Virus record (IMG/VR): IMGVR_UViG_3300025099_000004
Location: 1 to 56,902 of that record
DNA length: 56,902 nt
Direction: 5' to 3' (one strand)
DNA from: a virus
Taxonomy: Duplodnaviria > Caudoviricetes
The notes under the pieces are model-generated. The model did not search any database. It was given only the letters and a program-made list of their open reading frames with translations, and was not told the DNA's origin. The position numbers and the translations under genes are program-made. This document shows, in pieces, positions 2,028-55,569 of the stretch. Numbering within the stretch: the first letter of the stretch is position 1; every line of letters begins with the position of its first letter.

Positions 2028-2530
2028 TTGAAGATAATAGTATTTTTGATGCACCTATACCGGGCCAATCTTTAACTGCAGAGGTAGGTGCAAGACCGTG
2101 GCAACAACCAGCGCAGTTTCCTACTGTTGAAGGTGCATTTGAGTTTTATGTAAAGAAAATTACAAATCCAGAAATTAATAATTCGTTACTAGATGCTCTT
2201 GAAATGGGTACACCTGTAACATCTATTACAGAAATTCTTGTACAAAGTGGGGCAATGGAAGGTGTACATACTATAGATGTATCTATACAATTACTTCCTG
2301 TTCTTATGGAGCTTATAGCCTACATTGCTGAAGATGCAGGTGTTGAATATAATATGGGAATACAGAAAAAAATAGATCAAGACGTAATATCTGATAGTGA
2401 ACTGTCTGTTGCCCTGCATAAAGTAACGTCAAAAAAATCTAAAGAAAATAAAGAAATGCCTATGGTTGAACCTGAAGCTATGCCAGAAGAAAGACCACAG
2501 ACAAGTGGCATAATGTCAAGGAGAATGTAA
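2024..2530 (+). CDS. Hypothetical virion-associated protein (DAPIPGQSLT N-terminus)
   Basis: Coupled ORF in the late operon. Confidence 0.7.
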   Translation: MIEDNSIFDAPIPGQSLTAEVGARPWQQPAQFPTVEGAFEFYVKKITNPEINNSLLDALEMGTPVTSITEILVQSGAMEGVHTIDVSIQLLPVLMELIAYIAEDAGVEYNMGIQKKIDQDVISDSELSVALHKVTSKKSKENKEMPMVEPEAMPEERPQTSGIMSRRM

Positions 2531-35906: not shown

Positions 35907-38039
35907 ATGGAAGAAGATAACACATTTATTGAAGACGAGTCTATTGTACTAGAAGATACAGATGAGTCTACTGTAGACGATTATAATACTAATAACATTA
36001 TTCCTTATATTCAAGGTAGATATAAACGTGCGGAAGACTATCGCCAGCAAGATGAGACTCGTTGGTTAGATGCCTACAGAAACTATCGTGGTATATACGG
36101 ACCAGACGTACAGTTTACAGAAGTAGAAAAATCTAGGGTATTTATTAAAGTAACTAAAACAAAAACTCTTGCGGCGTATCAACAGCTAGAGTCCGTAATG
36201 TTTGCAAATAATAAGTTTCCTCTTACAGTTGACCCTACTGAATTACCAGAAGGTGTAGTTGCAGATGTACACTTTGATCCTAAAGAACCCGATCAGATTA
36301 AAACATCTGATGTAGACAAAGAAGTAAGTCCTTATGGTTATAAGGGTGACGGTAAAGAGTTACCTAAAGGTGCAACAGCCAAAACTCTTGGTGAAATGTT
36401 AGGTCCACTTTCAGAAAAGCTACAAGACATTGATGGTTTAAAAGAAGGTGTAGGTCTTACACCTACTGCAGTTACATTTAGTCCTGCAATGGTAGCTGCA
36501 AAGAAAATGCAAAAGAAAATACAAGACCAACTAGAAGAGTCTAATGCAAGTAAGCACCTTCGCAATACTGCATTTGAAATGGCTCTGTTTGGTACAGGTG
36601 TAATGAAGGGACCATTTGCCGTAGACAAAGAGTATCCACAGTGGGATGAAGACGGTAACTATAATCCTATAATTAAAACAGTGCCACAGGTATCGCATGT
36701 ATCTGTGTGGAACTTTTATCCTGACCCTGACGCAAACAATATGGATGAGGCACAGTATGTAATTGAACGTCACAAGATGTCAAGATCACAGCTTAGACAA
36801 CTTAAACAACGTCCATTCTTTCGTAACTCAGTAATTGATGAAGCAATTGAACTAGGTGAAAACTATACTAAAGAGTCTTGGGAAGATGATCTTTCTGATT
36901 ATGCAACTGAACATGGTGTAGAAAGATATGAAGTACTAGAGTATTGGGGTACAGTAGATGTATCTATGCTTGAGGAACAGGGTGTAGATATACCATCTGA
37001 ACTTAGCGATGTAGATGAATTACAGGCTAATGTGTGGATTTGTAACAATAAGTTACTTCGTATGGTAATTAATCCGTTTAAACCTGCACGTATTCCGTAT
37101 CATGCAGCACCCTATGAGTTAAACCCTTACTCCTTCTTTGGTGTAGGTATAGCTGAAAACATGGATGACACTCAGACTTTAATGAATGGTTTTATGCGTA
37201 TGGCAGTAGACAATGCCGTACTATCAGGTAATTTATTGATCGAGGTTGATGAGACTAACTTAGTGCCGGGGCAGGATCTATCTGTATATCCCGGCAAAGT
37301 GTTTAGGCGTCAAGGTGGCGCACCGGGTCAGGCTATCTTTGGTACAAAGTTTCCAAATGTATCAGGAGAGAACTTACAACTGTTTGACAAGGCACGTGTA
37401 CTTGCAGACGAAAGCACTGGCTTTCCTAGCTTTGCACATGGACAAACAGGTGTTACAGGAGTAGGGCGTACAGCATCAGGTATCTCAATGCTTATGGGTG
37501 CGGCACAGGGTAGTATTAAGTCTGTTGTCAAGAACATTGACGATTACTTACTACGGCCTTTAGGGGAGGGTCTATTTCGATTTAATATGCAGTTTGATTT
37601 TGATCCTGATATTAAAGGTGACTTAGAAGTTAAAGCACGTGGTACTGAAAGTCTTATGGCTAATGAAGTACGTAGCCAACGCCTTACACAATTTATGCAA
37701 ATTGCTTCAAGCCCAGCACTTGCACCGTTTACTAAATTTCCATATATCATTCGTGAGATTGCAAAGTCTCTTGAACTTGATCCAGACAAAGTTACTAACA
37801 ACATGGATGAAGCTGCAATACAGGCAGAGATAATGAAAGGTTTCCAACAAGAAGAACCTACCCCCGAACAAGGACAACCACAGGTAGACCCATCAGGATC
37901 TGGTGGAGCTACTATAGGAACAGGTGGAGTACCTGCACCGGGACAGGAAGGATTTACAGGAAATGCGCAACAACAACAAGCTACTCAACAACCTCAAGCC
38001 GCTGGTGGTCAACCAGCAGGAGTGGGACCAGTTCAATAA
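35907..38039 (+). CDS. Portal protein
   Basis: Follows terL; FGTGVMKGP, FYPDP and RTASGISML, typical of P22-like portals. Confidence 0.88.
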   Translation: MEEDNTFIEDESIVLEDTDESTVDDYNTNNIIPYIQGRYKRAEDYRQQDETRWLDAYRNYRGIYGPDVQFTEVEKSRVFIKVTKTKTLAAYQQLESVMFANNKFPLTVDPTELPEGVVADVHFDPKEPDQIKTSDVDKEVSPYGYKGDGKELPKGATAKTLGEMLGPLSEKLQDIDGLKEGVGLTPTAVTFSPAMVAAKKMQKKIQDQLEESNASKHLRNTAFEMALFGTGVMKGPFAVDKEYPQWDEDGNYNPIIKTVPQVSHVSVWNFYPDPDANNMDEAQYVIERHKMSRSQLRQLKQRPFFRNSVIDEAIELGENYTKESWEDDLSDYATEHGVERYEVLEYWGTVDVSMLEEQGVDIPSELSDVDELQANVWICNNKLLRMVINPFKPARIPYHAAPYELNPYSFFGVGIAENMDDTQTLMNGFMRMAVDNAVLSGNLLIEVDETNLVPGQDLSVYPGKVFRRQGGAPGQAIFGTKFPNVSGENLQLFDKARVLADESTGFPSFAHGQTGVTGVGRTASGISMLMGAAQGSIKSVVKNIDDYLLRPLGEGLFRFNMQFDFDPDIKGDLEVKARGTESLMANEVRSQRLTQFMQIASSPALAPFTKFPYIIREIAKSLELDPDKVTNNMDEAAIQAEIMKGFQQEEPTPEQGQPQVDPSGSGGATIGTGGVPAPGQEGFTGNAQQQQATQQPQAAGGQPAGVGPVQ

Positions 38040-38181
38040 CTATATAGAAGATTTAATTAAACAACAACACAAAACTATAGAACAGGCAGATGATAGTACT
38101 GTAGTTTTTCGGGCGCAGGGTTCTATACACACTTTGCGTAGATTACTTTTACTTAGGGAAGAAGTTCTAAAGAATGGCTGA
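37963..38181 (+). CDS. Small conserved post-portal protein
   Basis: FRAQG.I..LRRL..L motif; overlaps the portal C-terminus. Confidence 0.65.
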   Translation: MRNNNKLLNNLKPLVVNQQEWDQFNNYIEDLIKQQHKTIEQADDSTVVFRAQGSIHTLRRLLLLREEVLKNG

Positions 38182-41100
38182 TAACAAACCTATAGATACA
38201 GGTAATAAAACAGTTACTGGTAGAACTATTTGGAATGATCCAGAAACAGGAGAAGACTACTCTGAACGTTCTACAACATTTGAAATAGATGGTAAATTTT
38301 ATACTATGCCAACTGTAGCAGAAAATGGTAGCCAATATACAGAAGACCAAATAAGAACCTATGTCAAAGAAAATGGACCTGTAGATTACCTTACAGGTGA
38401 AAAACTCCCAGAGTTTAGGTATATGGAAGATGCTATAGAATACGCTATAAGCAGATCAAGTACAAGAAAACAAACAGATATGGCACAAGGTGGAGCAATA
38501 CCAATGAACAATCAAATGGAACTATTCGGTGAAGGTGGCCTTAAAGATGAAGGTGGTATGGTAGATGAAGTTTCTGGTAACGAAGTACCTGTAGGCGGCA
38601 CTAAAGAAGGTGTACGTGATGACATACCTGCCAACGTAAGTGAAGGTGAGTTTATATTTCCTGAAGATGTAGTTCGTTTTGTAGGGCTTGACAAACTCAT
38701 GCAAATACGTCAAGATGCTAAAATGGGTTTAAAGAAAATGGAAGCTATGGGTCAGATGGGTAATTCTGACGAAGCAACTATGGATGATGATATGCCATTT
38801 GGTATGGCTGATTTAATAGTAGTAGGTGGTAAAGGTGAACCTATGGAGTTTGCAGATGGTGGATTTGTACCTGTGCAAAACTTTCAAGAAGGTGGTCAAG
38901 TAACATTACCTACAGCACCTGTACCTACATTTAATCCTGATGATGTAGCTGATTATGATGCTTACTTGAGTAGTGTAGAAGTAACGGCACAAGAGTATAG
39001 AAACGCAGATGGCGAATCTATGATTATTACATTTATTAATGGTATTCCTATTGTACCTGTTCAGCCCGGATATACTTTATATGTTCCACCAGAAGAAGGT
39101 GGAGAAGCAACAGAAGCTACAGAAGTAGTAAACACTGTTAATAATAATAACAATGAAAAGTTTGGTAAAGGTAGAAACGTTAATGCTAATAACCAAGAGC
39201 CTACAGGTATTAATTATGCTGGTATGTCAGATGAAGAATTTCTTAAAAGAATAGAGTATGAAAATACTAAAGGATATAAAATACAACGTGCGGTAGCTTT
39301 AGGTGTTACTTCGTTGGTTCCTTTTGGTGGTGCATTAGCCTATGCCTCTATGCGAGGTACAGCACTTTCAAATGAAGCTCGTTTAAAAAATTTAATAGCA
39401 AGTGAATCTAATCCTGCAGAACAAGCTAAGTTAAATACTTTACTTGAAGAATTTTATAAATCTAATATTATGCAAGACTCCTCTGATGCAGGTGCATTTA
39501 CAAAATGGGTAGATGGAGTACTTGTTAAGTTAGGATTTTCTCCTGATCAAACAAAAAAAGCTGCAGAGGCTGCAGTTGTACTTAGTCAAAACAATCTTGG
39601 AAATACTGAGTTTGATGATGCCGTGGATGCCTTTCTTAAAGATAAAGAAAATAAAACTTTAGGTAGAGGTAATGCTGTAGGTGGACCTGCTACAAAAGAA
39701 CAGTTAGAAACTAGAAAAAAAGAAACAGCAGAACCATTCTTACGTTCTCAAGATCAGATAGATGAAACAAATAGAATGTTAAAAATGGAACCATTTGCAC
39801 CTACAACTAAATCTACACAACTCGCACCCGGTGATGTTGTAAACATAAATTTAAGTGGTGGCATAGATCTAAATGATAATTTTAAAGTACTTAGAGATGG
39901 ATTGCTTATACTACCTAAACTACCACCTATTGACGCAGCGGGTAAAACAGCCTCAGAAGTGGAACAAATAGTTTCAGGTCTACTTAAACTAGGAGATGAT
40001 AAACGAGGCACTACGTCTTCAGCTTCTGTTTCTATGGGGTACAAATCTACACAAACAGGTGATCCAAATATAGTTACAGATACAAACAGTGTAGGTCAAA
40101 GACCTTCTACTTATGATCCTGCTCAATTTGGTAGCGGAGAACCTGCACCTGCTGTTGAACCTGTAGCTGCACCACCATTAGCACAAACAAGCATAGATGA
40201 TAAATTTGCAGTTAAAACACCTTATGCATTAGGTTATCCTGAAGGTATGAAAAATCTTTCTGGTATAGGTTCTGTACCACCAGAACAAACTTTGCTAGAA
40301 CAATATTCCAATAATCCATTTAAACAAAAAGACATTGGAGATTTTTTAACTGCAGGTAGAAACGCTATATCTAGTATATTTCAACCTAAACAAGGTTTTG
40401 GATCTACTGTAAAAAAAGAAACAAATGTTACAGATCAACAATTACCAGAGTCAGTTCCTCAACAACAAAGCGCATTTAGTGGACCTACATTTGATACAGC
40501 GCAACAAACAGCGGAAGCATTTGATCAAGGTGTATCACGTTCTCCTGTAGTTGCTACTGAACCATTAGGTCCAAGTGTACTTGGTGGTAGAGGTACTATA
40601 AATCCAGCTAGTGGTACTATTGTAGATCCAAGAACACAACAAGAACAAAGAAATGCAGAAAGAATAAGACTTACAGGATATGATCCTATTGAACCTACAG
40701 TTAATCCTACTGCACCTCCTACATTAAGGCCACAGACAAGACCTAAAAAAGTTGCACCTAAAAAAGAAGTTGCACCACAACAACCTACAATAGAAAAATT
40801 GCAATTTAGTAATTTTAAAGGTAATGTTATTACTACAGCTTCTGACAATTTTGTTAATACTAAAGGTGTTTCTATAGATGTTAATCCAGAAGGTACACCC
40901 GGTAAAAATTCTGTTGGTGCATTTAGACAAGGTTTATATGCAGGTGATGGTTTTGAATGGAGAGAAGATGGCACTAGAATATACACGGGTGTAAATCAAG
41001 GTGTTACAGGTACTACTGATCCATCTGTTGCGTCTAAACCTTTGACACAAGAACTAATTAATCTTGACTTTATAAAAGATCTTTTTGGTACAGATAAAAA

Positions 41101-41413
41101 AGATAAAACAAGTAAAGATAAGCCTATTGTAAAAACAGGTGATGGTGGTGTTGCGGAAGCTCAAGCTATTAAAGAAAAACAAGCTAGACAGTCAGACGAT
41201 GAAAGACAGGCTGAAAGAGAAGCTGCAAGAGCCGCTACTAAAACTACAAAAGCATCAACTAAAGAATATAAAACAAAAAAAGAAGCAAGGGCTGCAACAG
41301 ATAAAGCAGTAGAAAAATTCGGTAGAGCTACTGGTGGTAGAGCTAAAGGTGGTTTGATTGACAGACCTATAAAAACAAAAAAGACTAAGAAGCGTGGTTT
41401 AGCGGCACGTTAG
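38174..41413 (+). CDS. Large modular virion-associated protein (DDIPA-GEF domain, xxGG repeats, Poly_export-like domain)
   Basis: 1079 aa between portal and scaffold; motifs described in findings. Confidence 0.7.
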   Translation: MADNKPIDTGNKTVTGRTIWNDPETGEDYSERSTTFEIDGKFYTMPTVAENGSQYTEDQIRTYVKENGPVDYLTGEKLPEFRYMEDAIEYAISRSSTRKQTDMAQGGAIPMNNQMELFGEGGLKDEGGMVDEVSGNEVPVGGTKEGVRDDIPANVSEGEFIFPEDVVRFVGLDKLMQIRQDAKMGLKKMEAMGQMGNSDEATMDDDMPFGMADLIVVGGKGEPMEFADGGFVPVQNFQEGGQVTLPTAPVPTFNPDDVADYDAYLSSVEVTAQEYRNADGESMIITFINGIPIVPVQPGYTLYVPPEEGGEATEATEVVNTVNNNNNEKFGKGRNVNANNQEPTGINYAGMSDEEFLKRIEYENTKGYKIQRAVALGVTSLVPFGGALAYASMRGTALSNEARLKNLIASESNPAEQAKLNTLLEEFYKSNIMQDSSDAGAFTKWVDGVLVKLGFSPDQTKKAAEAAVVLSQNNLGNTEFDDAVDAFLKDKENKTLGRGNAVGGPATKEQLETRKKETAEPFLRSQDQIDETNRMLKMEPFAPTTKSTQLAPGDVVNINLSGGIDLNDNFKVLRDGLLILPKLPPIDAAGKTASEVEQIVSGLLKLGDDKRGTTSSASVSMGYKSTQTGDPNIVTDTNSVGQRPSTYDPAQFGSGEPAPAVEPVAAPPLAQTSIDDKFAVKTPYALGYPEGMKNLSGIGSVPPEQTLLEQYSNNPFKQKDIGDFLTAGRNAISSIFQPKQGFGSTVKKETNVTDQQLPESVPQQQSAFSGPTFDTAQQTAEAFDQGVSRSPVVATEPLGPSVLGGRGTINPASGTIVDPRTQQEQRNAERIRLTGYDPIEPTVNPTAPPTLRPQTRPKKVAPKKEVAPQQPTIEKLQFSNFKGNVITTASDNFVNTKGVSIDVNPEGTPGKNSVGAFRQGLYAGDGFEWREDGTRIYTGVNQGVTGTTDPSVASKPLTQELINLDFIKDLFGTDKKDKTSKDKPIVKTGDGGVAEAQAIKEKQARQSDDERQAEREAARAATKTTKASTKEYKTKKEARAATDKAVEKFGRATGGRAKGGLIDRPIKTKKTKKRGLAAR

Positions 41414-41490: not shown

Positions 41491-42360
41491 ATGGAAAATC
41501 AAATAGTAGAAGCACAAGAAGCACCAAAGAGTATGATGATGCAGCGTAAAAGTAGAGTACGTGAACGTGCAGATAAAGATGAAGAAGAACTAAAAGAGTT
41601 ATTAGCAGAACAAAATAATACAAAAGAAGAGGCAGAAGTAAAGGCTAAAGAAGAAGCAGAGCCTGATACTGCAGAAGAAAGAAGCTACAAGAAACGATAT
41701 GCAGATCTACGTAGAGGATCACAAAAAGCTAAAGAAGAATTAGAAACTCGTATTGCTGCATTAGAAACACAACTTAAACAAAGCGCAGCACAAGAAATTA
41801 AACTGCCTAAGTCAGATGAAGACATTGATAGTTGGGCAAAAGAATATCCAGATGTAGCAGCCATTGTAGAAACTATTGCAATTAAAAAGGCACGTGAACA
41901 ACAGGCTGGCTTAGAGGATAAAGTAAAAGAGATAGACGCCATGCGTGAGACTGCCTCACGTGAACGTGCAGAAGTAGAGTTATTAAAAGCTCACCCTGAC
42001 TTTGGCGAAATACGTGACAGTGATGAGTTTCACGATTGGGCAGAACAACAGCCTAAGTGGGTACAAGAAGCTCTGTATGAGAATGATAACGATGCAAGGT
42101 CTGCATCACGTGCGATTGATCTGTATAAAGCAGACATGAACATATCAACAAAGAAACCTAGCAACAACAAAGATGCTGCTAAGTCTGTAAGTACTCGTAA
42201 TACTAGAAGTCAACCAGACGCTGAATCAAACAATAATAAATTGTCAGAGTCAAAAGTAAACAAAATGTCTAGTAAAGAGTACGAAAAACATCAAGACGAA
42301 ATCATGGAAGCTATACGAAGTGGTAATTTTATTTACGATATTTCGGGTAGCGCACGATAA
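41491..42360 (+). CDS. Capsid scaffolding protein
   Basis: Acidic coiled coil, KKRY.DL, HPDF; immediately before the MCP. Confidence 0.8.
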   Translation: MENQIVEAQEAPKSMMMQRKSRVRERADKDEEELKELLAEQNNTKEEAEVKAKEEAEPDTAEERSYKKRYADLRRGSQKAKEELETRIAALETQLKQSAAQEIKLPKSDEDIDSWAKEYPDVAAIVETIAIKKAREQQAGLEDKVKEIDAMRETASRERAEVELLKAHPDFGEIRDSDEFHDWAEQQPKWVQEALYENDNDARSASRAIDLYKADMNISTKKPSNNKDAAKSVSTRNTRSQPDAESNNNKLSESKVNKMSSKEYEKHQDEIMEAIRSGNFIYDISGSAR

Positions 42361-42402: not shown

Positions 42403-42602
42403 CGGGTTTAATGCGGCCCCATTTATGGATTACCCGCATTAGCCTATCTTCACAAACATAAATAGTTCTAGCGATTACCTAATATCTTTGGCCCGTTATA
42501 TAGAAGGTCGGCCAACTTTCTACAATAATGTTACCCAACAGAGTTAGCCTCATTAAAAACGATTTTAGTTTGTATCTGTGTCTCAATGCAAAGGATATTA
42601 CA
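42403..42602 (+). ncRNA. Candidate structured 5' leader of the major capsid gene
   Basis: ~200 nt non-coding with three stem-loops sharing a GCC/TTACC internal loop. Confidence 0.45.
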
Positions 42603-43676
42603 ATGGCATTTACGACAGCTACGGGTTATGGAAATCTACCTAATGGTAATTTTAGCCCGGTCATTTACAGCAAACAGGTACAGCTTGCGTTCCGCAAAGC
42701 TACTGTCTGTGGTGACATTACTAACTCCGATTATTTCGGAGAGATAAGTGGTCAAGGCGATACCGTCAAGATCATTAAGGAACCAGAAATTTCTGTTTCG
42801 CAGTATGCACGTGGCACGAATGTCACAGCACAAGATTTACAAGACGAAGACTTCTCATTAGTCATTGACAAAGCTAACTATTTTGCTTTTAAAATGGACG
42901 ATATTGAAGAAGCTCATAGTCATGTAAACTTTATGGATCTTGCATCTAATCGTGCTGCATACCGTTTGGCAGATCAACATGACCAAGAAGTTCTTGGATA
43001 CATGGCTGGTTATGCACAGTCTTCATTGCACTCGCAAGCTGATGGACTGAACTCAACTGTAAACGGTACTAAAGCAGTATCAACTGCAGGATCGAATGAG
43101 TTGCTATCTTCTATGCAACTTCATAAGGGTGACTTTGGGAATATTACTACTGGTTCCGCAGGAACACACTCTATTCCTTTAGCTGCACGTTTACCGGGTG
43201 CAACTGCACTTCCAACGGCAACTGCTTCACCAGCAATGGTTGTAGCACGTATGGCTCGTTTACTTGATCAACAGCAAGTAGATAAGCAAGGTCGCTGGTT
43301 AGTGGTAGATCCAGTATTCATGGAAATCTTAGCTGATGAAGATTCACGCTTCATGAACGCAGACTTCGGTGAATCAGGTGGATTGCGTAATGGTCTTTCC
43401 ATTAACAACTTCCACGGCTTCCGTGTATACTCCTCGTCTAACCTGCCATCAGTAGGTACTGGACCGGGAACTACAGGTTCTGCAAACCAACTGACTAACT
43501 TCGGCGTTGTCGTAGCTGGTCATGATTCTGCTGTAGCAACTGCAGAGCAGATCAATAAGACAGAAACATATCGTGACCCTGACAGCTTTGCTGACATTGT
43601 TCGTGGTATGCATCTATACGGCAGGAAGATTCTTCGTCCAGAAGCAATCGTAACTGCTCGTTATAACGCAGCGTAA
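42603..43676 (+). CDS. Major capsid protein (HK97 fold, P22 coat-like)
   Basis: NFSPVIYS, GDTVKI, F.D..RG.HLYG.KILRPEA; AAGGA RBS before MAFTT. Confidence 0.92.
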   Translation: MAFTTATGYGNLPNGNFSPVIYSKQVQLAFRKATVCGDITNSDYFGEISGQGDTVKIIKEPEISVSQYARGTNVTAQDLQDEDFSLVIDKANYFAFKMDDIEEAHSHVNFMDLASNRAAYRLADQHDQEVLGYMAGYAQSSLHSQADGLNSTVNGTKAVSTAGSNELLSSMQLHKGDFGNITTGSAGTHSIPLAARLPGATALPTATASPAMVVARMARLLDQQQVDKQGRWLVVDPVFMEILADEDSRFMNADFGESGGLRNGLSINNFHGFRVYSSSNLPSVGTGPGTTGSANQLTNFGVVVAGHDSAVATAEQINKTETYRDPDSFADIVRGMHLYGRKILRPEAIVTARYNAA

Positions 43677-45005: not shown

Positions 45006-46721
45006 ATGGCAGACGAATCAGGTCTTAATCCATTTATCTTTCCATGTAAAGGTGGTTTGGTACTCAACAGTTCTACTTTTACTATGGACCCCGGACAAGC
45101 ATTTGAGTTGCAAAACTTTGAGCCTGACATTAAAGGTGGATACCGTAGGATAAATGGATATACTAAATGGAACGCTAACTTAGTTCCTCATACCTCTGCT
45201 ACTTCTGAAAAGGTACTTATGTCTGCGTACCACAAAGGAGAAGTAATAGCAGCTAGAGGTACTAAAGTATTTAGATCTACAGGTGCAAGTAATGCACTAA
45301 ATGGTGCAATTAATAATTCAGCTACTACACTTACACTGGATAGCACTGCAGACTTTAGTACAACGGGTACTATACTTGTAGGTACAGAACAGATTACTTA
45401 CACAGGTAAAAGTACTACACAGCTTACTGGTTGTACAAGAGGAGCAAATAGTACGAGTGCTGCAGCACATGCAGATGATGCAACACTTACACAGTACTGG
45501 ACACAGATAGATACGGGTCGTACAAGTGCAGGTAAGTATACTTTTTACAGACAGAACTTATCTGGCACTGACATAATAGTATTTGCAGATGGGGCTAACA
45601 ATGCAGCATACTTTGCCTCTGGTAACTCTGTAACTGACATAAATGGAACTGGCGCACCTGCTAACCCTAAGTTTGTAACAGGACACAAGAACACTTTATT
45701 CTTTGCTGGTATGTCTAGTAATCCACAGGAGATAGTTTTTACTGCACCATACTCAGCTACAGACTTTACGGCAGCTAACGGTGCAGGATCAATTGTAGTA
45801 GAAAGTCCTATCACAGGATTGTTTCCATTTCGTGATGATCTGATTATATTCTGTGAAGAACGTATATTTAAATTGTCAGGTAATAGCGTAGCTGACTTTC
45901 AGTTAGTTCCTATATCTCGTAACATAGGATGTATGAATGGGTTTACAATACAAGAATTTGCAGGTGACATTGTATTCTTAGGTAGAGATGGGCTTAGAAC
46001 TGTAGCTGGAACTGAACGTATCGGTGACGTAGAACTTGGAAGTATTAGTACACCAGTACATCAGTTGTTTAATGTATACAGTACGATAGATGAATTTGAT
46101 TCTTTAATTGTACCTGACAAGACACAGTATAGAATATTCTTTGTGAACTCTTCTACTACTGCAAAAAAAACAACAAAGGGTGTTATTGCTCATAGATCAA
46201 GAGATGGGTATGAGTTTTCTGAAACGTTTGGATTACAACCTTCTTGTACTGACTCTATAAATGAAGATGGTAAAGTATATGTATTACATGGTGGATATGA
46301 TGGATATGTGTACAGACAAGAACAAGGCAATACTTTTGATGGAGACAATATAATCGGTAGATACAGATCACCTGATTTAACTATGGGTGATGCAGGTATT
46401 CGTAAAAACTTCCAAAGGGTTATTATTAACTATGCTCCTGAAGGTGTAGTAAACTCTGACTTGTTCTTACGATATGACTATGAAGACCCTGATGCTCCAA
46501 GACCTGCAGCTTATCCATTTGATAGTAGCTCTATCGTTGCTATATATGGAGCAGGAGCATATGGTACTGTTACTTACGGTGGGCAGTCTCAGCCTTTGGT
46601 AAGACAGGCAGTAGAAGGTAGTGGCTTTGCAATAGCACTAAGGGTTGTTGACAATGGTACATCAGAGCCTTACTCACTTAAAGGCTTTCAGTTAGAATTT
46701 GATGCAGCCGCAAGGCGTTAA
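45006..46721 (+). CDS. Tail tubular protein B / nozzle (beta-propeller)
   Basis: GGL...GGYRRI.G, IGC....IQE...D.VFL..DG. Confidence 0.75.
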   Translation: MADESGLNPFIFPCKGGLVLNSSTFTMDPGQAFELQNFEPDIKGGYRRINGYTKWNANLVPHTSATSEKVLMSAYHKGEVIAARGTKVFRSTGASNALNGAINNSATTLTLDSTADFSTTGTILVGTEQITYTGKSTTQLTGCTRGANSTSAAAHADDATLTQYWTQIDTGRTSAGKYTFYRQNLSGTDIIVFADGANNAAYFASGNSVTDINGTGAPANPKFVTGHKNTLFFAGMSSNPQEIVFTAPYSATDFTAANGAGSIVVESPITGLFPFRDDLIIFCEERIFKLSGNSVADFQLVPISRNIGCMNGFTIQEFAGDIVFLGRDGLRTVAGTERIGDVELGSISTPVHQLFNVYSTIDEFDSLIVPDKTQYRIFFVNSSTTAKKTTKGVIAHRSRDGYEFSETFGLQPSCTDSINEDGKVYVLHGGYDGYVYRQEQGNTFDGDNIIGRYRSPDLTMGDAGIRKNFQRVIINYAPEGVVNSDLFLRYDYEDPDAPRPAAYPFDSSSIVAIYGAGAYGTVTYGGQSQPLVRQAVEGSGFAIALRVVDNGTSEPYSLKGFQLEFDAAARR

Positions 46722-46732
46722 AGGAGAAATAA

Positions 46733-48661
46733 ATGGCTGGTTATACACGGCAGTCCACATATACAGACGGTGACATTATTGATGCAGCAGACTCTAATGA
46801 CGAGTTTGACCAACTTCTAGCTGCCTTTAATGCTTCTTCTGGACACACACACGATGGTACTGCTGCAGAGGGTGCAGCAATTACTAAGCTACTAAGTAAC
46901 ACACTTACCTTTGGTGCAGCTACTTCAGGTACAGATATTACAATTACCTTTGACGGTGAGACTAATGACGGTGTACTAAAGTGGATGGAAGACGAAGACT
47001 ACTTTGAGTTTTCTGATGACATACTTGTAGCCTCTACTGAAAAGATACAGTTTCGTGATACAGCTATTTATATTAACTCATCTGCTGATGGTCAACTTGA
47101 TCTCGTAGCTGATACAGAAATACAAATCGCAGCTACTACTATTGACATGAATGGTGCTGCAGACATCTCAGGTAACTTAGCTGTAGGTGGTAATCTTACA
47201 GTTGCAGGTAATGCTACAGTAACAGGTACTACAACGTTTAACGGTGGTACACTCACATTAGGTGACTCAGCCAGTGACAACGTAGTATTTGGTGCAGATG
47301 TTGACTCACACATTATACCTGACGATGATGACACATACGACTTAGGTAGCTCAAGTCAACAGTGGCGTAATTTATTTATTGATGGTACAGCAAATATTGA
47401 TACAGCCTCTATAGATAATATATCTGATGATACACTTGTGGCTACAGATAAAAAGATACAGTTTCGTGACACTGGCCTGTATATTAACTCTAGTACAGAT
47501 GGACAGTTAGATATTGTAGCTGACACTGAAGTACAGATAGCTGCAACTACAGTGGACATTAATGGTGCAGTAGATGTATCAGGTAATCTATCTGTAGGTG
47601 GTAACTTAGACGTTACAGGTACATTTGATCTAAGTGACTCTAACTTTACTAATGCAGGTGACATACAGCTAGATAGTATTACAGGTGACTCAGATACAAA
47701 CACTAGCATTACCTTTAGTGGCTCAGATGTAATTACGGTTACTACTGGTGGTGAGACACAAGTTACATTTAACAATGGTTCTATTCTACCTACAACTGAC
47801 AATGACGTAGACTTAGGATCTAGCTCACTAGAGTTTAAAGACTTGTACATTGATGGTACTGCCTATGTAGATGCCATAAACTTTAATGGTACTGCAATAT
47901 CTGCTACTGCAGCAGAACTTAATATTATGGATGGTGTAACAAGTACTGCAGCAGAGCTTAACATTCTTGATGGCGTTACGTCAACTGCAGCAGAACTAAA
48001 CATACTTGACGGTGTAACATCTACTGCCGCTGAGTTAAACATCCTTGATGGTGTTACAGCTACAACTGCAGAGATAAACCTTATTGATGGTGATACTTCA
48101 AGAGGTACTACGGCAGTAGCAAGTGGTGACGGTATTCTCATCAATGATGCTGGAACTATGCGTATGACTAATGTAGATACAGTGTCTACATACTTTGCAA
48201 GTCACAACGTAGGTGGAGGTAACATTGTTACTACTGGTGCATTAAACTCAGGTAGTATTACTTCTGGCTTTGGTGCTATAGATAATGGTTCGTCTAACAT
48301 TACTACGACAGGTGTAGGTTCCTTTGGCTCACTAGATATTAGTGGTGCTATAGATGTAGATGGCACTAGCAACTTAGATGCAGTAGATATAGACGGTGCT
48401 GTAGACATGGCAAGTACTCTGCAAGTTACAGGAGTAGCTACACTTACAGCTACTGCAATAGCTAACGCAGGTGTATCTGTAAAGAACGGAGCTACATCTG
48501 CTGGCTTTGTAGAGTTCTTTGAGGACTCAGATAACGGCTCAAATAAAGTAACACTAATAGGACCAGCATCTACTGCAGATGTGACCTTGACTTTACCTGC
48601 TGCTGCTGGTACAGTTGCAACAACAGATGATGCCACAGCCCTAGCCATTGCGCTTGGTTGA
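46733..48661 (+). CDS. Tail fibre protein 1 (internal duplication and 13-aa repeats)
   Basis: MAGYTRQ...GHTHDG anchor; duplicated KIQFRDT module. Confidence 0.8.
   Translation: MAGYTRQSTYTDGDIIDAADSNDEFDQLLAAFNASSGHTHDGTAAEGAAITKLLSNTLTFGAATSGTDITITFDGETNDGVLKWMEDEDYFEFSDDILVASTEKIQFRDTAIYINSSADGQLDLVADTEIQIAATTIDMNGAADISGNLAVGGNLTVAGNATVTGTTTFNGGTLTLGDSASDNVVFGADVDSHIIPDDDDTYDLGSSSQQWRNLFIDGTANIDTASIDNISDDTLVATDKKIQFRDTGLYINSSTDGQLDIVADTEVQIAATTVDINGAVDVSGNLSVGGNLDVTGTFDLSDSNFTNAGDIQLDSITGDSDTNTSITFSGSDVITVTTGGETQVTFNNGSILPTTDNDVDLGSSSLEFKDLYIDGTAYVDAINFNGTAISATAAELNIMDGVTSTAAELNILDGVTSTAAELNILDGVTSTAAELNILDGVTATTAEINLIDGDTSRGTTAVASGDGILINDAGTMRMTNVDTVSTYFASHNVGGGNIVTTGALNSGSITSGFGAIDNGSSNITTTGVGSFGSLDISGAIDVDGTSNLDAVDIDGAVDMASTLQVTGVATLTATAIANAGVSVKNGATSAGFVEFFEDSDNGSNKVTLIGPASTADVTLTLPAAAGTVATTDDATALAIALG
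47906..48100 (+). repeat. Five tandem 39-bp units encoding TAAELNILDGVTS
   Basis: Read directly; codons have diverged synonymously. Confidence 0.9.
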
Positions 48662-48675
48662 TATAGGAGAAAACA

Positions 48676-49029
48676 ATGGCTAATACTTTTAAAACAATTA
48701 CACGGGATGTAGCACCAGCAAGTTCTGGTACACCTGAAACAATATACACAGTACAGTCTGGTAGTACTGTTATCATACTTGGACTATTCTTATGTAACGT
48801 ACACAGTTCACAGGTTACTGCTTCAGTAGACTTTGTGAGTACAACAACTCAAACAAGTCAGACACAAAACACTACGGCACAACTTGTTAAAGATGTAGCT
48901 ATACCTGTAGGATCATCTTTGTCTGTACTTGACGGTAAGATTGTAGCTAACGTAGGTGACATAATTAAAGTAGACTGTTCTGTAGCTGACAAAGTTTCAG
49001 TAATAATGAGTTACATGGAGATAACCTAA
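48676..49029 (+). CDS. Beta-rich tail-associated protein, paralog of 30507-30875
   Basis: MANTFK...IYTV...GL.LCN...LVKDV.IP.GSSL. Confidence 0.7.
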   Translation: MANTFKTITRDVAPASSGTPETIYTVQSGSTVIILGLFLCNVHSSQVTASVDFVSTTTQTSQTQNTTAQLVKDVAIPVGSSLSVLDGKIVANVGDIIKVDCSVADKVSVIMSYMEIT

Positions 49030-50531
49030 TGGCAGGATATATTGGCTCTAGGGCTGTAAGTGTAAACACTACATCAGCTACCATCACTGATGACCTAACG
49101 ATAGGTGACGATCTTACTGTTACTGATGACATGACCGTTGGTGGTACTCTTGGAGTTACAGGTGTCTTAACTGCGACTTCATTAGACATCTCTGGTGACA
49201 TAGACGTAGACGGTACAACTAACCTAGACGTAGTTGATATTGATGGTGCTGTTGACATGGCATCTACTCTAGATGTAAGCGGAAATTTGGGGATTGGAAC
49301 TACCGCAACTACCGCAGCTAGTAGTACTAAAAATATATTCTTAGGTGGGACAGGTAACATTTATGCTGATGCAGCAGCAAGTGCAGATGCTTCATTATCC
49401 ATTAGTCAAAACGCAAAAGTAGATGCGGATAACTCATGGGAATATATTGTTACTGACGAAGCTAGTAACTATTATCAGAACGCTGGTTATCACGTATGGC
49501 GTTACGCTGCAAGCGGCAGTGCAGGGGCAGATATTTCTTGGTCAGAGGCCATGCGCATCGACAGCGGTCGGTTACTAATAGGCACAACTTCTACATATTT
49601 TGCAGATGCAGATGACCTTGTTGTAGCAGGTAGTGGGAACCAAGGAATAACGATAGCCTCTGGTACTTCTAATGCTGGAAACATTTTCTTTGCTGATGGC
49701 ACTTCTGGTGATGATCGATTTAGGGGAATTGTCAGATACGACCACTCTGGGAATAATATGTTATTTTATACTAATGGTGCAAATGAACGTATGCGCATCG
49801 ACAGCAGCGGCAACGTGCTGGTGGGTAAATCAAGTGTGTCATTTGGCACAGCGGGTGCGGAGCTAAACCCTAGCGGCTCTCATAACATGACAAGAAGTGG
49901 TGGCGCATCACTTTCTTTGAATCGCCTTTCGAGTGATGGGAATATTTTAGATTTCTACAAAGACGGCACGGGTGTAGGGAGTATTAATTCACGAGCAGGG
50001 GTTGTAACAACTATAATTTTAGACCCTCGCTCTGGTGGCGGTGGCCTCTCTGGAGGAGGACAAACTATTTTTCCGACAGATAATGGTGGCACTTTAGCAG
50101 ATGACCGTATTAGTTTTGGTAGTAGCAGTTTAAGGTTTGACGACATCTTTGCCACCAACGGCACAATTCAAACCTCTGACCAAAACGAAAAACAAGACAT
50201 AGCTGCACTTACTTCAGCCGAAATGTTGGTAGCAAAACGTATATCTGCGTTGTTCAAGACATTCCGCTGGAAATCCAAGGTTGCAGCTAAGGGTGACGAT
50301 GCAAGAACTCACTCAGGTATTGTAGCTCAAGATGTGCAAGCAGCTTTTGCAGCCGAAAGTCTGGACGCTGGTGATTATGGAATGTTTATAAGCACAACTT
50401 GGACAAATGATGATGGTGATGAACAAACTAGAATGGGTATTCGTTACCCTGAGTTGTTGTCATTCTTAGCGGCATACAATGAACAACGCTTTGCAGCTAT
50501 TGAGACACGCTTAACGGCATTAGAAGGATAA
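49029..50531 (+). CDS. Tail fibre 2 with C-terminal peptidase S74 intramolecular chaperone
   Basis: MAGYIG start; ERMRIDSSG repeats; TSDQNEKQDI...HSGIVAQDV...RY.EL. Confidence 0.85.
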   Translation: MAGYIGSRAVSVNTTSATITDDLTIGDDLTVTDDMTVGGTLGVTGVLTATSLDISGDIDVDGTTNLDVVDIDGAVDMASTLDVSGNLGIGTTATTAASSTKNIFLGGTGNIYADAAASADASLSISQNAKVDADNSWEYIVTDEASNYYQNAGYHVWRYAASGSAGADISWSEAMRIDSGRLLIGTTSTYFADADDLVVAGSGNQGITIASGTSNAGNIFFADGTSGDDRFRGIVRYDHSGNNMLFYTNGANERMRIDSSGNVLVGKSSVSFGTAGAELNPSGSHNMTRSGGASLSLNRLSSDGNILDFYKDGTGVGSINSRAGVVTTIILDPRSGGGGLSGGGQTIFPTDNGGTLADDRISFGSSSLRFDDIFATNGTIQTSDQNEKQDIAALTSAEMLVAKRISALFKTFRWKSKVAAKGDDARTHSGIVAQDVQAAFAAESLDAGDYGMFISTTWTNDDGDEQTRMGIRYPELLSFLAAYNEQRFAAIETRLTALEG

Positions 50532-50857: not shown

Positions 50858-53110
50858 ATGACCAGAGCAAGAGATTTAGCCGATAGTGCAGACAAGGACA
50901 TTGCTGGCACACTCACTTTAGATGCCGTTAATGCAAGCGGTGTAATCACAGGTTTGACTGTAGAAGCTACAGGCGATACTGCTGCTGGTGATAATGCAGC
51001 TATGGGATATACTGCTGCTGAAGGTTTGATCCTAACAGGTCAAGGTAGTACAGGTGACGTAACGATTAAGAATGATGCCGATGCAGTGGTTCTGCAAGTG
51101 CCTACTGGTACGACAAATGTTAATGTTATTGGCTCTCTAGATGTCGCTACCAACGCTGTAATTGATGGCACTGCCCTCGTAACAGGTGTCCTGACCACCA
51201 CGGCTGCGACTGTGTTTAATGGTGGATTTGTTAGTAATGCTAACTCTACAGTAAATCCTACTGGAGGTGTAATTACTCTAGGAGCAAATGGACATATTAT
51301 TTCTAAGCAATCTCTTGATGTTGCTACTGCTGGTGGTCGTTTTATTGGTCAAAGTAACCGTGGAGAACTAGGTAATATTGGTATTGAACAAACTGCCAAC
51401 AGTACAGACGGTGGTTACATAAGGTTTTCTACTGCACCTTCTGGATCAACAACTTCAGCAGAGGCCATGCGCATCCAAAGCAACGGCAGTGTCGGCATTG
51501 GCGTAACTAATCCTTCCTCTTTTAATTCTGGGGCGTATAATTTAGTAGTAGGCGATCCAAGTATTAACAGTCAGGGCATGACTATAGCCGCTGATACAAG
51601 TTCAATTTTATATTTCGCTGATGGAACAAGTGGTGCTGAAACATTTGCGGGGAGTATTATTTACAATCACTCCGATAACAATATGACGTTTAGAACGAAT
51701 GGATTTAATTCAGCTTTAGTAATAGCTTCAGATCAGTCAGTATCCACACCCACAGCAGGTACATCTAACGTAAAGCTTGGTGTCAACGCAGGTAACTCAA
51801 TAGCTTCTGGCGGTAACTACAACGTCTGTATAGGAGATGAAGCAGGAACGGCTATAAGCACAGGTGATAAAAACATTGCTGTTGGTTTTACTGCTTTGAA
51901 CGGTGAGGTACTTGGTTCTCAGGCAACGGCTGTAGGATACCAAGCTCTATTTTCACAAAACATGGGATCGTCTGTAAACAGTGACAATACTGCTGTTGGT
52001 TATAATGCAGGTAGTTCAATTAGCACAGGTAAAAGAAATACCATTTTGGGTGCGTCAGCAGGATTACAAGGACAGACCATAGATGACAGCGTAATTATTG
52101 GTTACAATGCTGGTGGCGGTGCTGTTATGACAGGCCATGATAATGTCTTAATTGGTAAAGATTCTGGTCAATCTATGACCTCTGGGCAAGCCAATGTAAT
52201 GGTAGGACGTGATACTGGACAAGCTACAAACACAGGTCAATGGAATATTGCTATCGGGGATCAAGCCTTACAAGCAAACCAAGATGGTGACGGTGCAGTA
52301 GCTATTGGACGTGATGCCTTGGCAGTCTTTGAACCTGCTGACGGTCTAAGTTACAACGTGGTGATTGGTTATCAGGCAGGTGCTGTGGTGACTACTGGTC
52401 TAAACAATACTCTTGTTGGAGGTGTTGCAGGAGATGCTCTTCAAGGTGGACATAATAATACAGCGGTGGGTATGGGCGCAGCAGGGGCACTTATTTCTGG
52501 CGGTCTCAACACGGCAATAGGAGAATCAGCAGCTAAAACCTTAACAACTGGGGGTTCCAATGTTTGTATTGGAGAAGATGCAGATGTTAGTGCTAGTGGT
52601 AATAGTAATTCAATATGTCTTGGCGTAGGAATAGCTGCTGCTGCGAATGACTTTTCGTTTGGTAAATCAGGAAATGTTGTAACAAATGATTTTGATACAG
52701 ATGCTAACTGGTCACGATCCTCTGATGAGCGTTTAAAGAAAAACATTACAAATCAGACATTAGGTTTAGATTTTATAAATGATTTAAGAACTGTTAAATA
52801 TAAATGGAAAGCCAATGGTGAGCTTGATGCTTCAGACAGTCAATTAGCACATTTGCGTAAGACTGATGATGACGGTAACATTATTAACTATATGAACACA
52901 GATGCAACAATGCACAACTTTATCGCACAAGAAGTTAAAGCTGCATTAGACACGGCAGGTGTATCTGACTTTGCTGGTTGGAAAGAAGATCATTATGGGG
53001 TGCAACAAGTATCTCGTGAGATGTTTGTCATACCACTTGTAAAGGCAGTACAAGAACTGTCAACCAAACTAGATGCAGCACTCGCTCGTATAGCAACACT
53101 GGAAGGATAA
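50858..53110 (+). CDS. Tail fibre 3 with NxAxG repeats and S74 chaperone
   Basis: MTRARDLAD start; repeated N(T/V)A(V/I)G; SSDERLKKNI...FIAQEV...LVKAVQEL. Confidence 0.85.
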   Translation: MTRARDLADSADKDIAGTLTLDAVNASGVITGLTVEATGDTAAGDNAAMGYTAAEGLILTGQGSTGDVTIKNDADAVVLQVPTGTTNVNVIGSLDVATNAVIDGTALVTGVLTTTAATVFNGGFVSNANSTVNPTGGVITLGANGHIISKQSLDVATAGGRFIGQSNRGELGNIGIEQTANSTDGGYIRFSTAPSGSTTSAEAMRIQSNGSVGIGVTNPSSFNSGAYNLVVGDPSINSQGMTIAADTSSILYFADGTSGAETFAGSIIYNHSDNNMTFRTNGFNSALVIASDQSVSTPTAGTSNVKLGVNAGNSIASGGNYNVCIGDEAGTAISTGDKNIAVGFTALNGEVLGSQATAVGYQALFSQNMGSSVNSDNTAVGYNAGSSISTGKRNTILGASAGLQGQTIDDSVIIGYNAGGGAVMTGHDNVLIGKDSGQSMTSGQANVMVGRDTGQATNTGQWNIAIGDQALQANQDGDGAVAIGRDALAVFEPADGLSYNVVIGYQAGAVVTTGLNNTLVGGVAGDALQGGHNNTAVGMGAAGALISGGLNTAIGESAAKTLTTGGSNVCIGEDADVSASGNSNSICLGVGIAAAANDFSFGKSGNVVTNDFDTDANWSRSSDERLKKNITNQTLGLDFINDLRTVKYKWKANGELDASDSQLAHLRKTDDDGNIINYMNTDATMHNFIAQEVKAALDTAGVSDFAGWKEDHYGVQQVSREMFVIPLVKAVQELSTKLDAALARIATLEG

Positions 53111-53550: not shown

Positions 53551-55569
53551 ATGGCAGGATATTTAGGATCAGTACCAGTACCACAGGCTACCCAACACAG
53601 GGAAACCTTTACTGCTACTGCTGGTCAGACTACGTTTAACACGGCAGGTTATACACCTCTGTTTATAGATGTGTACCTCAATGGTGTCCATCTAAGTCCT
53701 GCCGATATTACAGCTACTAATGGGAGTGACGTTGTACTAGGTGCATGTGTAGTCAATGACATTGTAGACATTGTAAGCTATACACCATTTGAGGTAGCAA
53801 GTCAAACGTTTACTGGTACGACTACAATGACAGACGTTGTAGCAGCGTCCTTAGACATCTCTGGTAACATAGATATTGATGGAACAACTAACTTAGATGT
53901 TGTAGATATTGATGGTGCTGTTGATATGGCATCTACATTGGGAGTAGCTGGTGTAGTCACAGCTAATGCTGGTGTAGTTGTAGATAACTTCACGCTTGAT
54001 GGAACTACTCTGGCTTTAAGCTCTGGTAACTTCACGCTTGATGTAGCTGGAACAATATCTCTTGATGCTGATGGTGCTGACATTATGTTTAAAGATGGTG
54101 GTACAGAGTTTGGTAGAGTGTACAACTCATCAAATGATTTTGCCCTGTATTCAGCAATTTCAGACCAAGATATGAAATTTCAAGGCAACGATGGTGGTTC
54201 TCTTGTTACAGCATTAACCCTTGATATGTCTGACGCTGGTGCGGCTACGTTTAATTCTAATGTTGGGATTGGTGTAGCACCAGCAACAGCTTATGGAAGT
54301 GCTTTACAAATCCACGACAGTGGTACAAGCGGTGCTAACTTACGTTTGACAGATAGTAACACTGGATCTGGAACTGGCAACGGTATGGAGCTTCTTGCTA
54401 TTAACGCTGATAACTATTGGATAAATCGTGAAAATGGCCCAATCTTTAAAATTATAAATGGTCAATCAGTTCAAAAGATTACTACCACTGCCACTGAGAT
54501 TCAAAGCGGAAATTTGGGGATTGGAGTTACACCTGATACATTTAGTTCAGGTTATACAGCCTTGCAAATAAACGGATACGCTTACAACATTGCCCATAGT
54601 GGTGGTGATCACTACATAACAAACAATGCTTACTATAATAGTAGCTGGAAATATGGTCAAACATCAACTGCTCAAAAAATAGAAATGAGCAGTGGTCTAG
54701 CACGAATATTCACAGCGGCTTCGGGTTCAGCAGACGCAGATATTACTTGGGTTGAAGGGCTTAGAGTTGGTGTAAGTGAGTCTGTTTTTAACGAAGCCAG
54801 TGACAACATAGATTTCCGTATTGAGAGTGATGGCATTGCAAATATGCTTAATGTTGATGGTCAACATAATTCTGTTTGTATTGGTAATAATACTACATCT
54901 CATAGATTTATTGTACACTCAGAAGTCTCTGGTGATCATGTTGCAGCAATTAGAAATGATGGAAACAACACCAACAAACTTGGTCTAGTTATTCTTGCTG
55001 GTACAGATGATAACTCTGGCACTAATACTATGATTCAATTTAGAGATGGTGATAATACAGATGTTGGAGCGATAACAGCTTCTGGTGGTACAGTTACTTA
55101 TGCTGCATTTACGGCTGTACACCCTGCTATTTTACCAGATGAAGACAATGCTAACGGTTATGCTTATGGAACATTAGTAGAGACAACTAGCGTATCTTAT
55201 GAAAAAAATTCATCAGGAAATGATTTTGAACGTGGTATAATTTATAACGTAACTAAATCAACCAGTGCCAATTCAAGATCAGTTTTAGGAGCTTATTCTG
55301 GTAAACTTACTGATTGGATTCCATCAAGTAATAAACATAATATAAATGTATTAGGTGATGGACACATTCTTTGTAACAATTCTGGCGGTAACATAGCTGT
55401 AGGTGATGGCATATGTACTTCTGCTACAGCAGGGATTGGACAAAAGGCTACAGCGTCACCCTCTATGATTATTGGAATAGCTCAAGAAGCAGTAACATTT
55501 TCTAGCGGTACAGAAACTAAACTTGTGCCAGTTCAATATGGACTACAACAATTTACACCGTGGTCTTAA
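53551..55569 (+). CDS. Tail fibre 4
   Basis: MAGYLG; ATAGQTTF...VYLNGV; C-terminal GDGI.TS...G...IIG.A.E domain. Confidence 0.8.
   Translation: MAGYLGSVPVPQATQHRETFTATAGQTTFNTAGYTPLFIDVYLNGVHLSPADITATNGSDVVLGACVVNDIVDIVSYTPFEVASQTFTGTTTMTDVVAASLDISGNIDIDGTTNLDVVDIDGAVDMASTLGVAGVVTANAGVVVDNFTLDGTTLALSSGNFTLDVAGTISLDADGADIMFKDGGTEFGRVYNSSNDFALYSAISDQDMKFQGNDGGSLVTALTLDMSDAGAATFNSNVGIGVAPATAYGSALQIHDSGTSGANLRLTDSNTGSGTGNGMELLAINADNYWINRENGPIFKIINGQSVQKITTTATEIQSGNLGIGVTPDTFSSGYTALQINGYAYNIAHSGGDHYITNNAYYNSSWKYGQTSTAQKIEMSSGLARIFTAASGSADADITWVEGLRVGVSESVFNEASDNIDFRIESDGIANMLNVDGQHNSVCIGNNTTSHRFIVHSEVSGDHVAAIRNDGNNTNKLGLVILAGTDDNSGTNTMIQFRDGDNTDVGAITASGGTVTYAAFTAVHPAILPDEDNANGYAYGTLVETTSVSYEKNSSGNDFERGIIYNVTKSTSANSRSVLGAYSGKLTDWIPSSNKHNINVLGDGHILCNNSGGNIAVGDGICTSATAGIGQKATASPSMIIGIAQEAVTFSSGTETKLVPVQYGLQQFTPWS

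Follow-up and report, generated by a model that had tools for sequence, protein, structure and literature searches.

At aa 541-626 of a 1079-amino-acid (aa) portal-adjacent protein, IMG/VR record IMGVR_UViG_3300025099_000004 almost certainly encodes a single, complete and stand-alone Poly_export fold, i.e. domain 1 (D1) of the OPX/Wza polysaccharide export proteins. The record (positions 1 to 56,902; all 56,902 nucleotides are referred to as the window), complete and with direct terminal repeats, represents an HMO-2011-type marine podophage. The same assignment holds that the domain was inserted with domain precision into the mosaic middle of a protein family located next to the portal gene in this phage type, and that, among cellular sequences, it comes closest to the N-terminal domains of long multi-SLBB OPX proteins, of a kind that a marine alphaproteobacterium also encodes. 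New is the combination, a known Poly_export domain in a new architecture within a known phage protein family of no assigned role. The protein, called the carrier in the following, and its domain are located as follows.

38174..41413, plus strand: carrier gene 'X', portal-adjacent hypervariable large protein of 1079 aa (open reading frame (ORF) list, homologs)
39794..40051, plus strand: inserted unit, aa 541-626 (86 aa), one complete Poly_export/D1 domain (flank comparison, junction contigs)
39800..39985, plus strand: PF02563 match, aa 543-604 (Pfam-A, six-frame family search)
39818-39988, plus strand: segment marked by an earlier note on this DNA, translating to QLAPGDVVNINLSGGIDLNDNFKVLRDGLLILPKLPPIDAAGKTASEVEQIVSGLLK, in frame in ORF 38174..41413
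39800..40039, plus strand: folded domain (AlphaFold2), with strands at aa 555-561, 566-571 and 616-622 and a helix at aa 593-608
39995..40018, plus strand: loop DDKRGTTS between helix and last strand, aa 608-615, with a 4-residue insertion including K-R compared to the nearest relatives (alignment)

The earlier note had proposed a Wza/Poly_export-like domain in a low-complexity part of the 1079-aa ORF. Translation reproduced the quoted peptide, and the flanks are compositionally biased, with P, T and Q accounting for 12, 10 and 9% of aa 632-860 and K and A for 19 and 15% of aa 961-1079, a C-terminal part of 119 aa with a net charge of +15. A Pfam-A search with the whole carrier led to PF02563 (Poly_export) at 36.6 bits (E 5.2e-9; aa 543-604 aligned to profile positions 2-63 of 77), above the curated gathering cut-off of 28 bits. 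Slightly higher scores were obtained for a 107-aa piece of the carrier (41.5 bits) and in the six-frame family search of the record (41.6 bits at 39800-39985), and the suggested comparison with PF02563 was thus significant throughout. All invariant and nearly invariant columns of the family alignment are retained (G553, D554, G576, G590 and T592). Neither SLBB, SLBB_2 or Wza_C nor any further domain was detected in the carrier by Pfam-A down to E<=10. When the 107-aa piece was searched by phmmer against 1.84 billion representative proteins, 62 matches at E<=1e-3 were obtained, the best true ones with E 1.5e-11, which excludes chance as the source of the domain match by a wide margin.

An AlphaFold2 model of aa 531-630, calculated from a 24-row alignment (A2) of OPX relatives plus the phage-type protein P0009 described below, reached a pLDDT (predicted local distance difference test) of 84.2 and a pTM (predicted template modelling score) of 0.69 and showed a central alpha-helix packed on antiparallel beta-strands, as in Wza and WzaB. 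As OPX relatives made up the folding alignment, the model does not give independent support to the homology call. Foldseek returned only Wza, WzaB or Wza-Wzc (OPX) chains as the ten best PDB matches, with a probability of 1.00 and template modelling (TM) scores of 0.56-0.62 (top entries include 7XFF, 2W8H, 9R64, 2W8I, 9R60, 9N9A, 2J58 and 9R68), after which the probability fell to 0.21; the root-mean-square deviation to WzaB (9N9A) was 2.2 A over 79 columns. The comparison with Wza D1 that the earlier note had recommended therefore agreed with its domain call. Its position for the segment was also right, its end too early, since the folded domain extends to about aa 622 (nt 40039). From the secondary structure, read without superposition, the DDKRGTTS loop may be the counterpart of the alpha1-beta5 loop of WzaB.

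The borders of the inserted unit were obtained from two sets of relatives. P0004 (914 aa, N-terminally shorter) has near-identical flanks (74% over the whole alignment) and shares the left flank ...NRMLKMEP (QDQIDETNRMLKMEP), after which it continues with unrelated repeats instead of the domain. The right flank QTGDPNIVTDT..., which directly follows the domain, is common to P0003 and to the IMG/VR loci L009 and L010, with no domain before it there. Together, the shared left and right flanks bracket the unit at aa 541-626. Its distribution was determined among 347 IMG/VR stretches encoding a carrier relative, of which the best 80 were kept for analyses of loci; alignment A4 comprises 41 members, the carrier and 40 ORFs from these 80 loci, with 3'-truncated frames and same-length duplicates dropped. 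By Pfam, Poly_export is present in 1 of the 41 members, the carrier itself, and in none of six further scanned relatives (the isolates CRP-345, HMO-2011, CRP-1 and CRP-207, plus P0003 and P0004), and tblastn with a 120-aa segment located the domain in none of the 80 viral loci. As to the presence or absence in homologs, which the earlier note had wanted to see, the domain is missing from the 40 other family members aligned.

An artefact, i.e. a motif matching by chance or an assembly chimera, would be in line with the low pLDDT of 45 for a single-sequence AlphaFold2 model of aa 513-639 and with a phmmer search of the domain piece against PDB sequences, which did not find Wza. Besides the Pfam score above the curated cut-off, the phmmer E-value of 1.5e-11 among 1.84 billion proteins and the match to the Wza fold, contigs from other samples argue against it. 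The identical carrier protein was found on 6 contigs from three sources, and another contig encodes a 1080-aa variant in which the domain region is 100% identical. At least half of the words of a 901-bp stretch were present in 10 of 24 marine metagenome run rows; 5 of the 10 may come from the source sample. In four marine runs not marked as source (X6, X8, X9 and X10), contigs bridged the junctions with 0 differences, the left one in X6 (39500-39898) and X10 (39688-40063) and the right one in X6 (39966-40400), X8 (39920-40400) and X9 (39857-40173). Domain score, fold match and junction-bridging contigs effectively refute an artefact, leaving it a negligible probability.

We then asked for the closest relatives of the domain. 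A Pfam scan covered 24 of the 62 phmmer matches. The canonical OPX architecture, Poly_export plus SLBB, was found in 15 of them, and Poly_export without SLBB in three (P0010, P0012 and P0019, the last ending directly after its Poly_export domain); one match was the phage-type protein P0009. The remaining five were without Poly_export. Four of these (P0005, P0006, P0008 and P0017) are MBG_2 repeat proteins that had matched through summed weak repeats including the upstream linker, and one (P0014) is a SpaA_4 protein; when the query was trimmed to aa 536-625, all five were lost or retained marginal E-values, and they were rejected as relatives. In the domain-only alignment, identities over 77 aa were 49% to P0009, 47% to P0013, a 967-aa multi-SLBB OPX protein, and 47% to P0007, an OPX fragment. 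This points to an OPX lineage of the long multi-SLBB kind as the source, as judged from the sequences, with the specific donor not found. A locus search with P0013 gave five loci, the best named relative being that of alpha proteobacterium HTCC2255 (38% identity), whose own Poly_export domain is 28% identical to the phage domain. Among 401 genomes sampled from the class of HTCC2255 (a tally that includes G241, flagged unpublished), 54 matched the domain at E<=1e-3, at best with 46% over 52 aa. The branching around the two phage domains was not resolved in a FastTree of 31 domains, so that no donor can be named from it, and the GC content across the insertion (0.35-0.39) is like that of the gene (0.33-0.41) and gives no compositional sign of a recent transfer.

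In phages the domain is rare. No match to the segment or to P0007 was found by tblastn in 50,697 phage records, a locus search with P0007 alone found nothing, IMG/VR yielded none in a pattern scan with the segment, and a scan of metagenomes with it led to two distant matches only (30-37% identity). The viral structure library BFVD held no match to the model better than E 0.2. Bacterial Poly_export fragments appeared in an Atlas search with feature scores of 0.83-0.85, which are leads only. In the parts of the literature reached by a full-text search, no description of a Poly_export/Wza D1 domain inside a phage protein came up; in the OPX papers whose text was accessible, 'phage' stood for an Mx8 attachment site. 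Both the capture of a host domain and its unfamiliarity in podovirus structural proteins, as put forward in the earlier note, are in agreement with these results. The acquisition is lineage-specific, the domain being missing from the relatives of the carrier and its closest cellular sequences being OPX proteins.

Two groups among the phmmer matches are worth recording in themselves. P0010 (470 aa) carries four and P0012 (322 aa) three tandem Poly_export domains, both without SLBB, and they fall outside the three published OPX classes. The MBG_2 (beta-grasp) proteins P0005, P0006, P0008 and P0017, which head the phmmer list, are large surface proteins with sorting domains of the type IX secretion system; their weak repeat matches to aa 530-582 may be due to chance or to a remote resemblance between beta-strands.

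According to the accessible text of PMC9603273, a protein counts as OPX if one or more SLBB domains come after an N-terminal Poly_export domain; such proteins are secreted or lipidated. The carrier has a different architecture, with its domain at aa 543-622 of 1079 and no SLBB or SLBB_2 at E<=10. Its N-terminus, MADNKPIDTGNKTVTGRT..., has no hydrophobic leader by inspection, and neither a signal peptide nor a lipobox is present. The NCBIfam OPX equivalogs (EpsY, pepcterm_export and EpsE) scored 16.8-22.2 bits on the carrier, compared to cut-offs of 180-320. As judged from its sequence, the carrier contains an OPX domain but is no OPX protein. E. coli Wza (2J58, 2W8H, 9R60/9R64) and Myxococcus WzaB (9N9A) belong to the same Pfam family and have the same fold, and the conserved G-D, D-G and G-x-T columns of OPX domain 1 are kept in the phage domain; it differs from the Wza chains by an identity of only 18-20%, its stand-alone position in the middle of a protein and the 4-residue loop insertion. 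The nearest cellular sequences, long multi-SLBB OPX proteins of the P0013, P0022, P0023 and P0032 type (967-1195 aa), have Poly_export at about aa 128-190 and carry SLBB and SLBB_2 repeats, neither of which is present in the carrier.

A second case was found with P0009. This protein of 659 aa, from another podophage lineage, has no Pfam or PHROG family besides a sub-threshold Poly_export match (26.4 bits compared to the cut-off of 28), and its relatives are encoded on three viral contigs (L005-L007). The L006 relative, 57% identical in the C-terminal block, has 11 aa at the place where P0009 has 100 aa (348-447), which include the domain. The neighbours of the L006 gene match phrog_4287 'DNA ejection protein' (E 1.9e-7) and phrog_770 'DNA transfer protein' (E 3e-16); L007 matches the first 120 aa of P0009 at 92% up to the contig end and has the same upstream genes (phrog_4287 with E 3e-4). 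P0009 and the carrier therefore both have a Poly_export-like insertion (49% identical) that is missing from their own relatives, whereas P0009 is an unrelated protein in an ejection-type gene neighbourhood and not beside the portal gene. The sequences indicate that D1 domains of the same subtype have entered two unrelated phage proteins by sporadic insertion, one of them with an ejection-protein neighbourhood.

The carrier gene lies between the portal gene and the head genes. The other genes of this region, together with the conserved parts of the carrier, are the following.

35907..38039, plus strand: portal protein gene, immediately upstream of the carrier gene (phrog_332, phrog_1216)
38513..38812, plus strand: near-invariant N-terminal motif of the carrier, aa 114-213 (41-sequence alignment A4)
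39290..39352, plus strand: hydrophobic segment of the carrier containing Gly and Pro, aa 373-393, AVALGVTSLVPFGGALAYASM (highest Kyte-Doolittle 19-aa mean in the protein, 1.59)
41491..42360, plus strand: gene of 289 aa in the scaffold-gene position, a role inferred from position only (phrog_13678, function unknown)
42528..43676, plus strand: major head protein gene (phrog_267)

Tail, tail-fibre and tail-spike genes are located downstream of the head gene, the fibre and spike genes at 49029..50531 and 50858..53110. By tblastn the carrier matched 14 phage records, all of the HMO-2011 type (11 Roseobacter CRP phages, Puniceispirillum phage HMO-2011 with two records, and one uncultured phage). The order portal, carrier, head is kept in CRP-345, HMO-2011, CRP-1 and CRP-207, whose homologs share the post-portal position and the near-invariant N-terminal motif with the carrier and have neither Poly_export nor any other Pfam domain. 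Among the 80 loci, the portal gene lies directly upstream of the carrier relative in 76, and the upstream DNA is absent from the data in the other four. Alignment A4 has 51 invariant columns, 48 of them inside aa 114-213, and little is conserved outside. The pattern of this block reads QMELF..GGL..GG..D..SGN.VP.G.T..VRDD...S.GEF....V.R..GL...M..R..AK.GL..MEAMGQMGN..EAT; it was without a match in Pfam, PHROG and PDB searches, and a profile of the carrier family gave low-complexity noise only against PDB. With this motif and the position directly after the portal gene, the carrier is a member of the family. A counterpart of the hydrophobic segment, followed by basic residues, is present in 40 of the 41 members, and the segment may be membrane-active, as judged from its sequence. 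Co-folding of the portal protein with aa 100-310 of the carrier gave a score of 0.00, which has no bearing either way.

Outside the N-terminal block the family is highly variable. Loci L008, L009, L011 and L021 encode portals 96-99% identical to that of the window next to very different carriers, with an alignable identity of 40-77%; the complete ones have 1311 aa (L009) and 814 aa (L021), and the frames of L008 (473 aa) and L011 (872 aa) are cut off. Such different carriers beside near-identical portals identify the carrier as a hypervariable mosaic on a conserved N-terminal base, and its locus as a hotspot of mosaic change beside a highly conserved portal gene. CRP-345 (L001) has at 9719-10423 an additional gene for a class I methyltransferase dependent on S-adenosylmethionine, between the portal-adjacent protein and the head genes, another sign that this spot accepts extra genes. 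Two different copies of the portal-adjacent gene (L071 and L078) lie about 55 kb apart on one IMG/VR contig of 80,374 bp, which may be concatemeric or may have been joined from the genomes of two related phages.

Against this background, the domain could be a passenger, i.e. a tolerated mosaic insertion in a hypervariable linker that acts at most as a small folded or self-associating knot and has no host target. Its occurrence in a single one of 41 family members, the unrelated repeats at the same place in close relatives, and a family middle that is freely reshuffled even among phages with 96-99% identical portals would be expected from such an insertion, and all domain copies found are identical, so that no selection signal on the domain can be measured. 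On the other hand, exactly one intact domain was inserted, with the invariant columns kept and a confident fold; the same domain type entered a second phage protein family independently, and the variant with the domain is present in several marine samples. On balance we regard a mere passenger as rather unlikely.

What the domain might do can be derived from the position of D1 in the exporter. According to the accessible text of PMC12819527, D1 is the part of the OPX octamer reaching furthest into the periplasm and the part that contacts Wzc, the polysaccharide co-polymerase (PCP); the alpha1-beta5 loop of WzaB D1 binds the apex of the Wzc co-polymerase via a twin-arginine motif, and a cryo-EM preprint is stated there to describe the same D1-Wzc contact in E. 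coli. As D1 contacts Wzc, a Wzc-type partner would be a more specific target than the capsule-export channel as such, which the earlier note had in mind. We tentatively prefer, among the readings considered here, that the carrier reaches the cell envelope and that its D1 module is a periplasmic mimic of host OPX domain 1, engaging a Wzc-type partner or the OPX ring. For this, the carrier would have to leave the capsid with the DNA, most simply after being packaged near the portal, or get to the envelope otherwise, and the domain would end up in the periplasm, the native compartment of OPX D1. There it would mimic the D1 ring element of the host OPX protein and engage the periplasmic apex of a Wzc-type PCP, or the OPX D1 ring itself. 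The outcome would be either an entry apparatus anchored at an existing envelope-spanning export site, or an OPX protein uncoupled from its PCP and a stop of capsule or exopolysaccharide (EPS) export. Since the closest relatives do without the domain, it would be an accessory, host-specific module and not the core function of the carrier. Besides the identity of the domain and its precise insertion, points in favour of this reading are the second insertion in P0009, whose relatives are flanked by ejection-type genes, the great variation of the carrier beside near-identical portals, its conserved hydrophobic segment, and the Wzc contact of D1.

Several points weigh against such a role. Location in the virion, arrival in the periplasm and binding to Wzc are all inferred steps. 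The earlier note had taken the carrier for a virion or ejected protein, an assignment that found no backing: its gene is labelled 'hypothetical protein' in 14 of the 14 matching phage records, and PHROG and Pfam place it in no structural family. No match to ejection-protein (T7 gp14-16 or P22 gp7/20/16 type), internal-virion-protein or MuF families was obtained with Pfam or PHROG; PHROG gave only phrog_10219 (unknown function, E 0.0089), Pfam no such family and in particular no Phage_Mu_F domain (MuF/SPP1 gp7-like) at E<=10. Virion proteomics of HMO-2011-type phages was not found in the literature, as far as the accessible text of PMC4819975, PMC6918029 and 10.1101/2019.12.14.876532, among others, goes. 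Other large proteins without a family are encoded by the same phage and could be its ejection proteins. In OPX proteins, D1 functions in an octameric ring with SLBB domains behind it, and a single copy in a disordered linker might not bind Wzc. The putative contact loop is 4 residues longer than in the nearest OPX relatives, and the corresponding loop of P0009 lacks a basic pair. With only 54 of 401 genomes matching and a best identity of 46% over 52 aa, neither a donor nor a target is identified, and the rarity of the domain (1 of 41) equally fits a neutral passenger.

Accessory domains are known from several phage head or ejected proteins, such as the transglycosylase of T7 gp16, the toxin domains of MuF/SPP1 gp7-type proteins and the crAss cargo proteins, and the genes of SPP1 gp7 and Mu F, too, are located after the portal gene. 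The carrier resembles these by analogy, as a large variable and possibly capsid-associated protein in which a conserved part would serve for targeting and a swappable part would be the cargo, but matches none of these families in sequence; in the Atlas, a crAss_CARG1 cluster appeared at a feature score of 0.78, a level rated as often due to chance.

If the carrier were exposed on the outside of the particle, as a head or neck fibre, the domain could instead be a glycan-binding module for adsorption to host capsule or EPS. The long Pro/Thr/Gln-rich variable protein does resemble surface fibres, and host-contact proteins are typically hypervariable between phages that are otherwise near-identical. 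We nevertheless hold this to be improbable, as in OPX proteins SLBB and not Poly_export is predicted to contact the polymer, according to the accessible text of PMC9603273, and the carrier is without SLBB. The phage moreover has the separate tail-fibre and tail-spike genes named above, and the relatives of P0009 are found among ejection-type genes, not fibre genes.

Alternatively, the carrier might not be part of the virion but a product of the infected cell that is held in the inner membrane by aa 373-393, has its C-terminal part including D1 in the periplasm and interferes with host export for superinfection exclusion or an easier release. The conserved hydrophobic segment in 40 of 41 members would suit this, as would the extended Pro-rich and Lys/Ala-rich C-terminal part, which is reminiscent of TolA and TonB, proteins spanning the periplasm. 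The location of the gene between portal and head genes in all genomes seen, the borderline hydrophobicity of the segment (1.59) and the Gly and Pro in its middle speak against it, and we give such a non-virion protein as little credit as the glycan-binding fibre.

Returning to the periplasmic mimic, its boldest form would be that phages repeatedly graft a decoy exporter D1 onto proteins that travel into the envelope. The decoy would latch onto a Wzc-type co-polymerase or slot into the OPX ring, so that the export site serves as a route through the periplasm, or capsule and EPS export is shut from the first moment of infection. This is unlikely as it stands; if true, it would constitute a new class of phage-host interface, present in two unrelated carrier proteins. 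In any case, a host exporter domain in the swappable middle gives a concrete handle on a portal-adjacent protein of no known role, in phages that are among the most abundant groups of the surface ocean according to the accessible part of 10.1101/2019.12.14.876532, and suggests that phages might engage the capsule/EPS export machine by means other than polymer degradation. The D1-Wzc contact, as described in the accessible text of PMC12819527, makes a binding test of the domain straightforward.

Two further observations concern other large proteins of the window. For five ORFs at 2-1816, 2530-3696, 3698-7318, 46733-48661 and 53551-55569 (604, 388, 1206, 642 and 672 aa), PHROG gave no family at E<=1e-3; they may include the phage's true ejection proteins. 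A 571-aa protein encoded at 45006-46721 in the tail module matched phrog_5107 'amidase' (E 3.5e-81) as well as phrog_511 'internal virion protein' and is a candidate wall-degrading virion protein.

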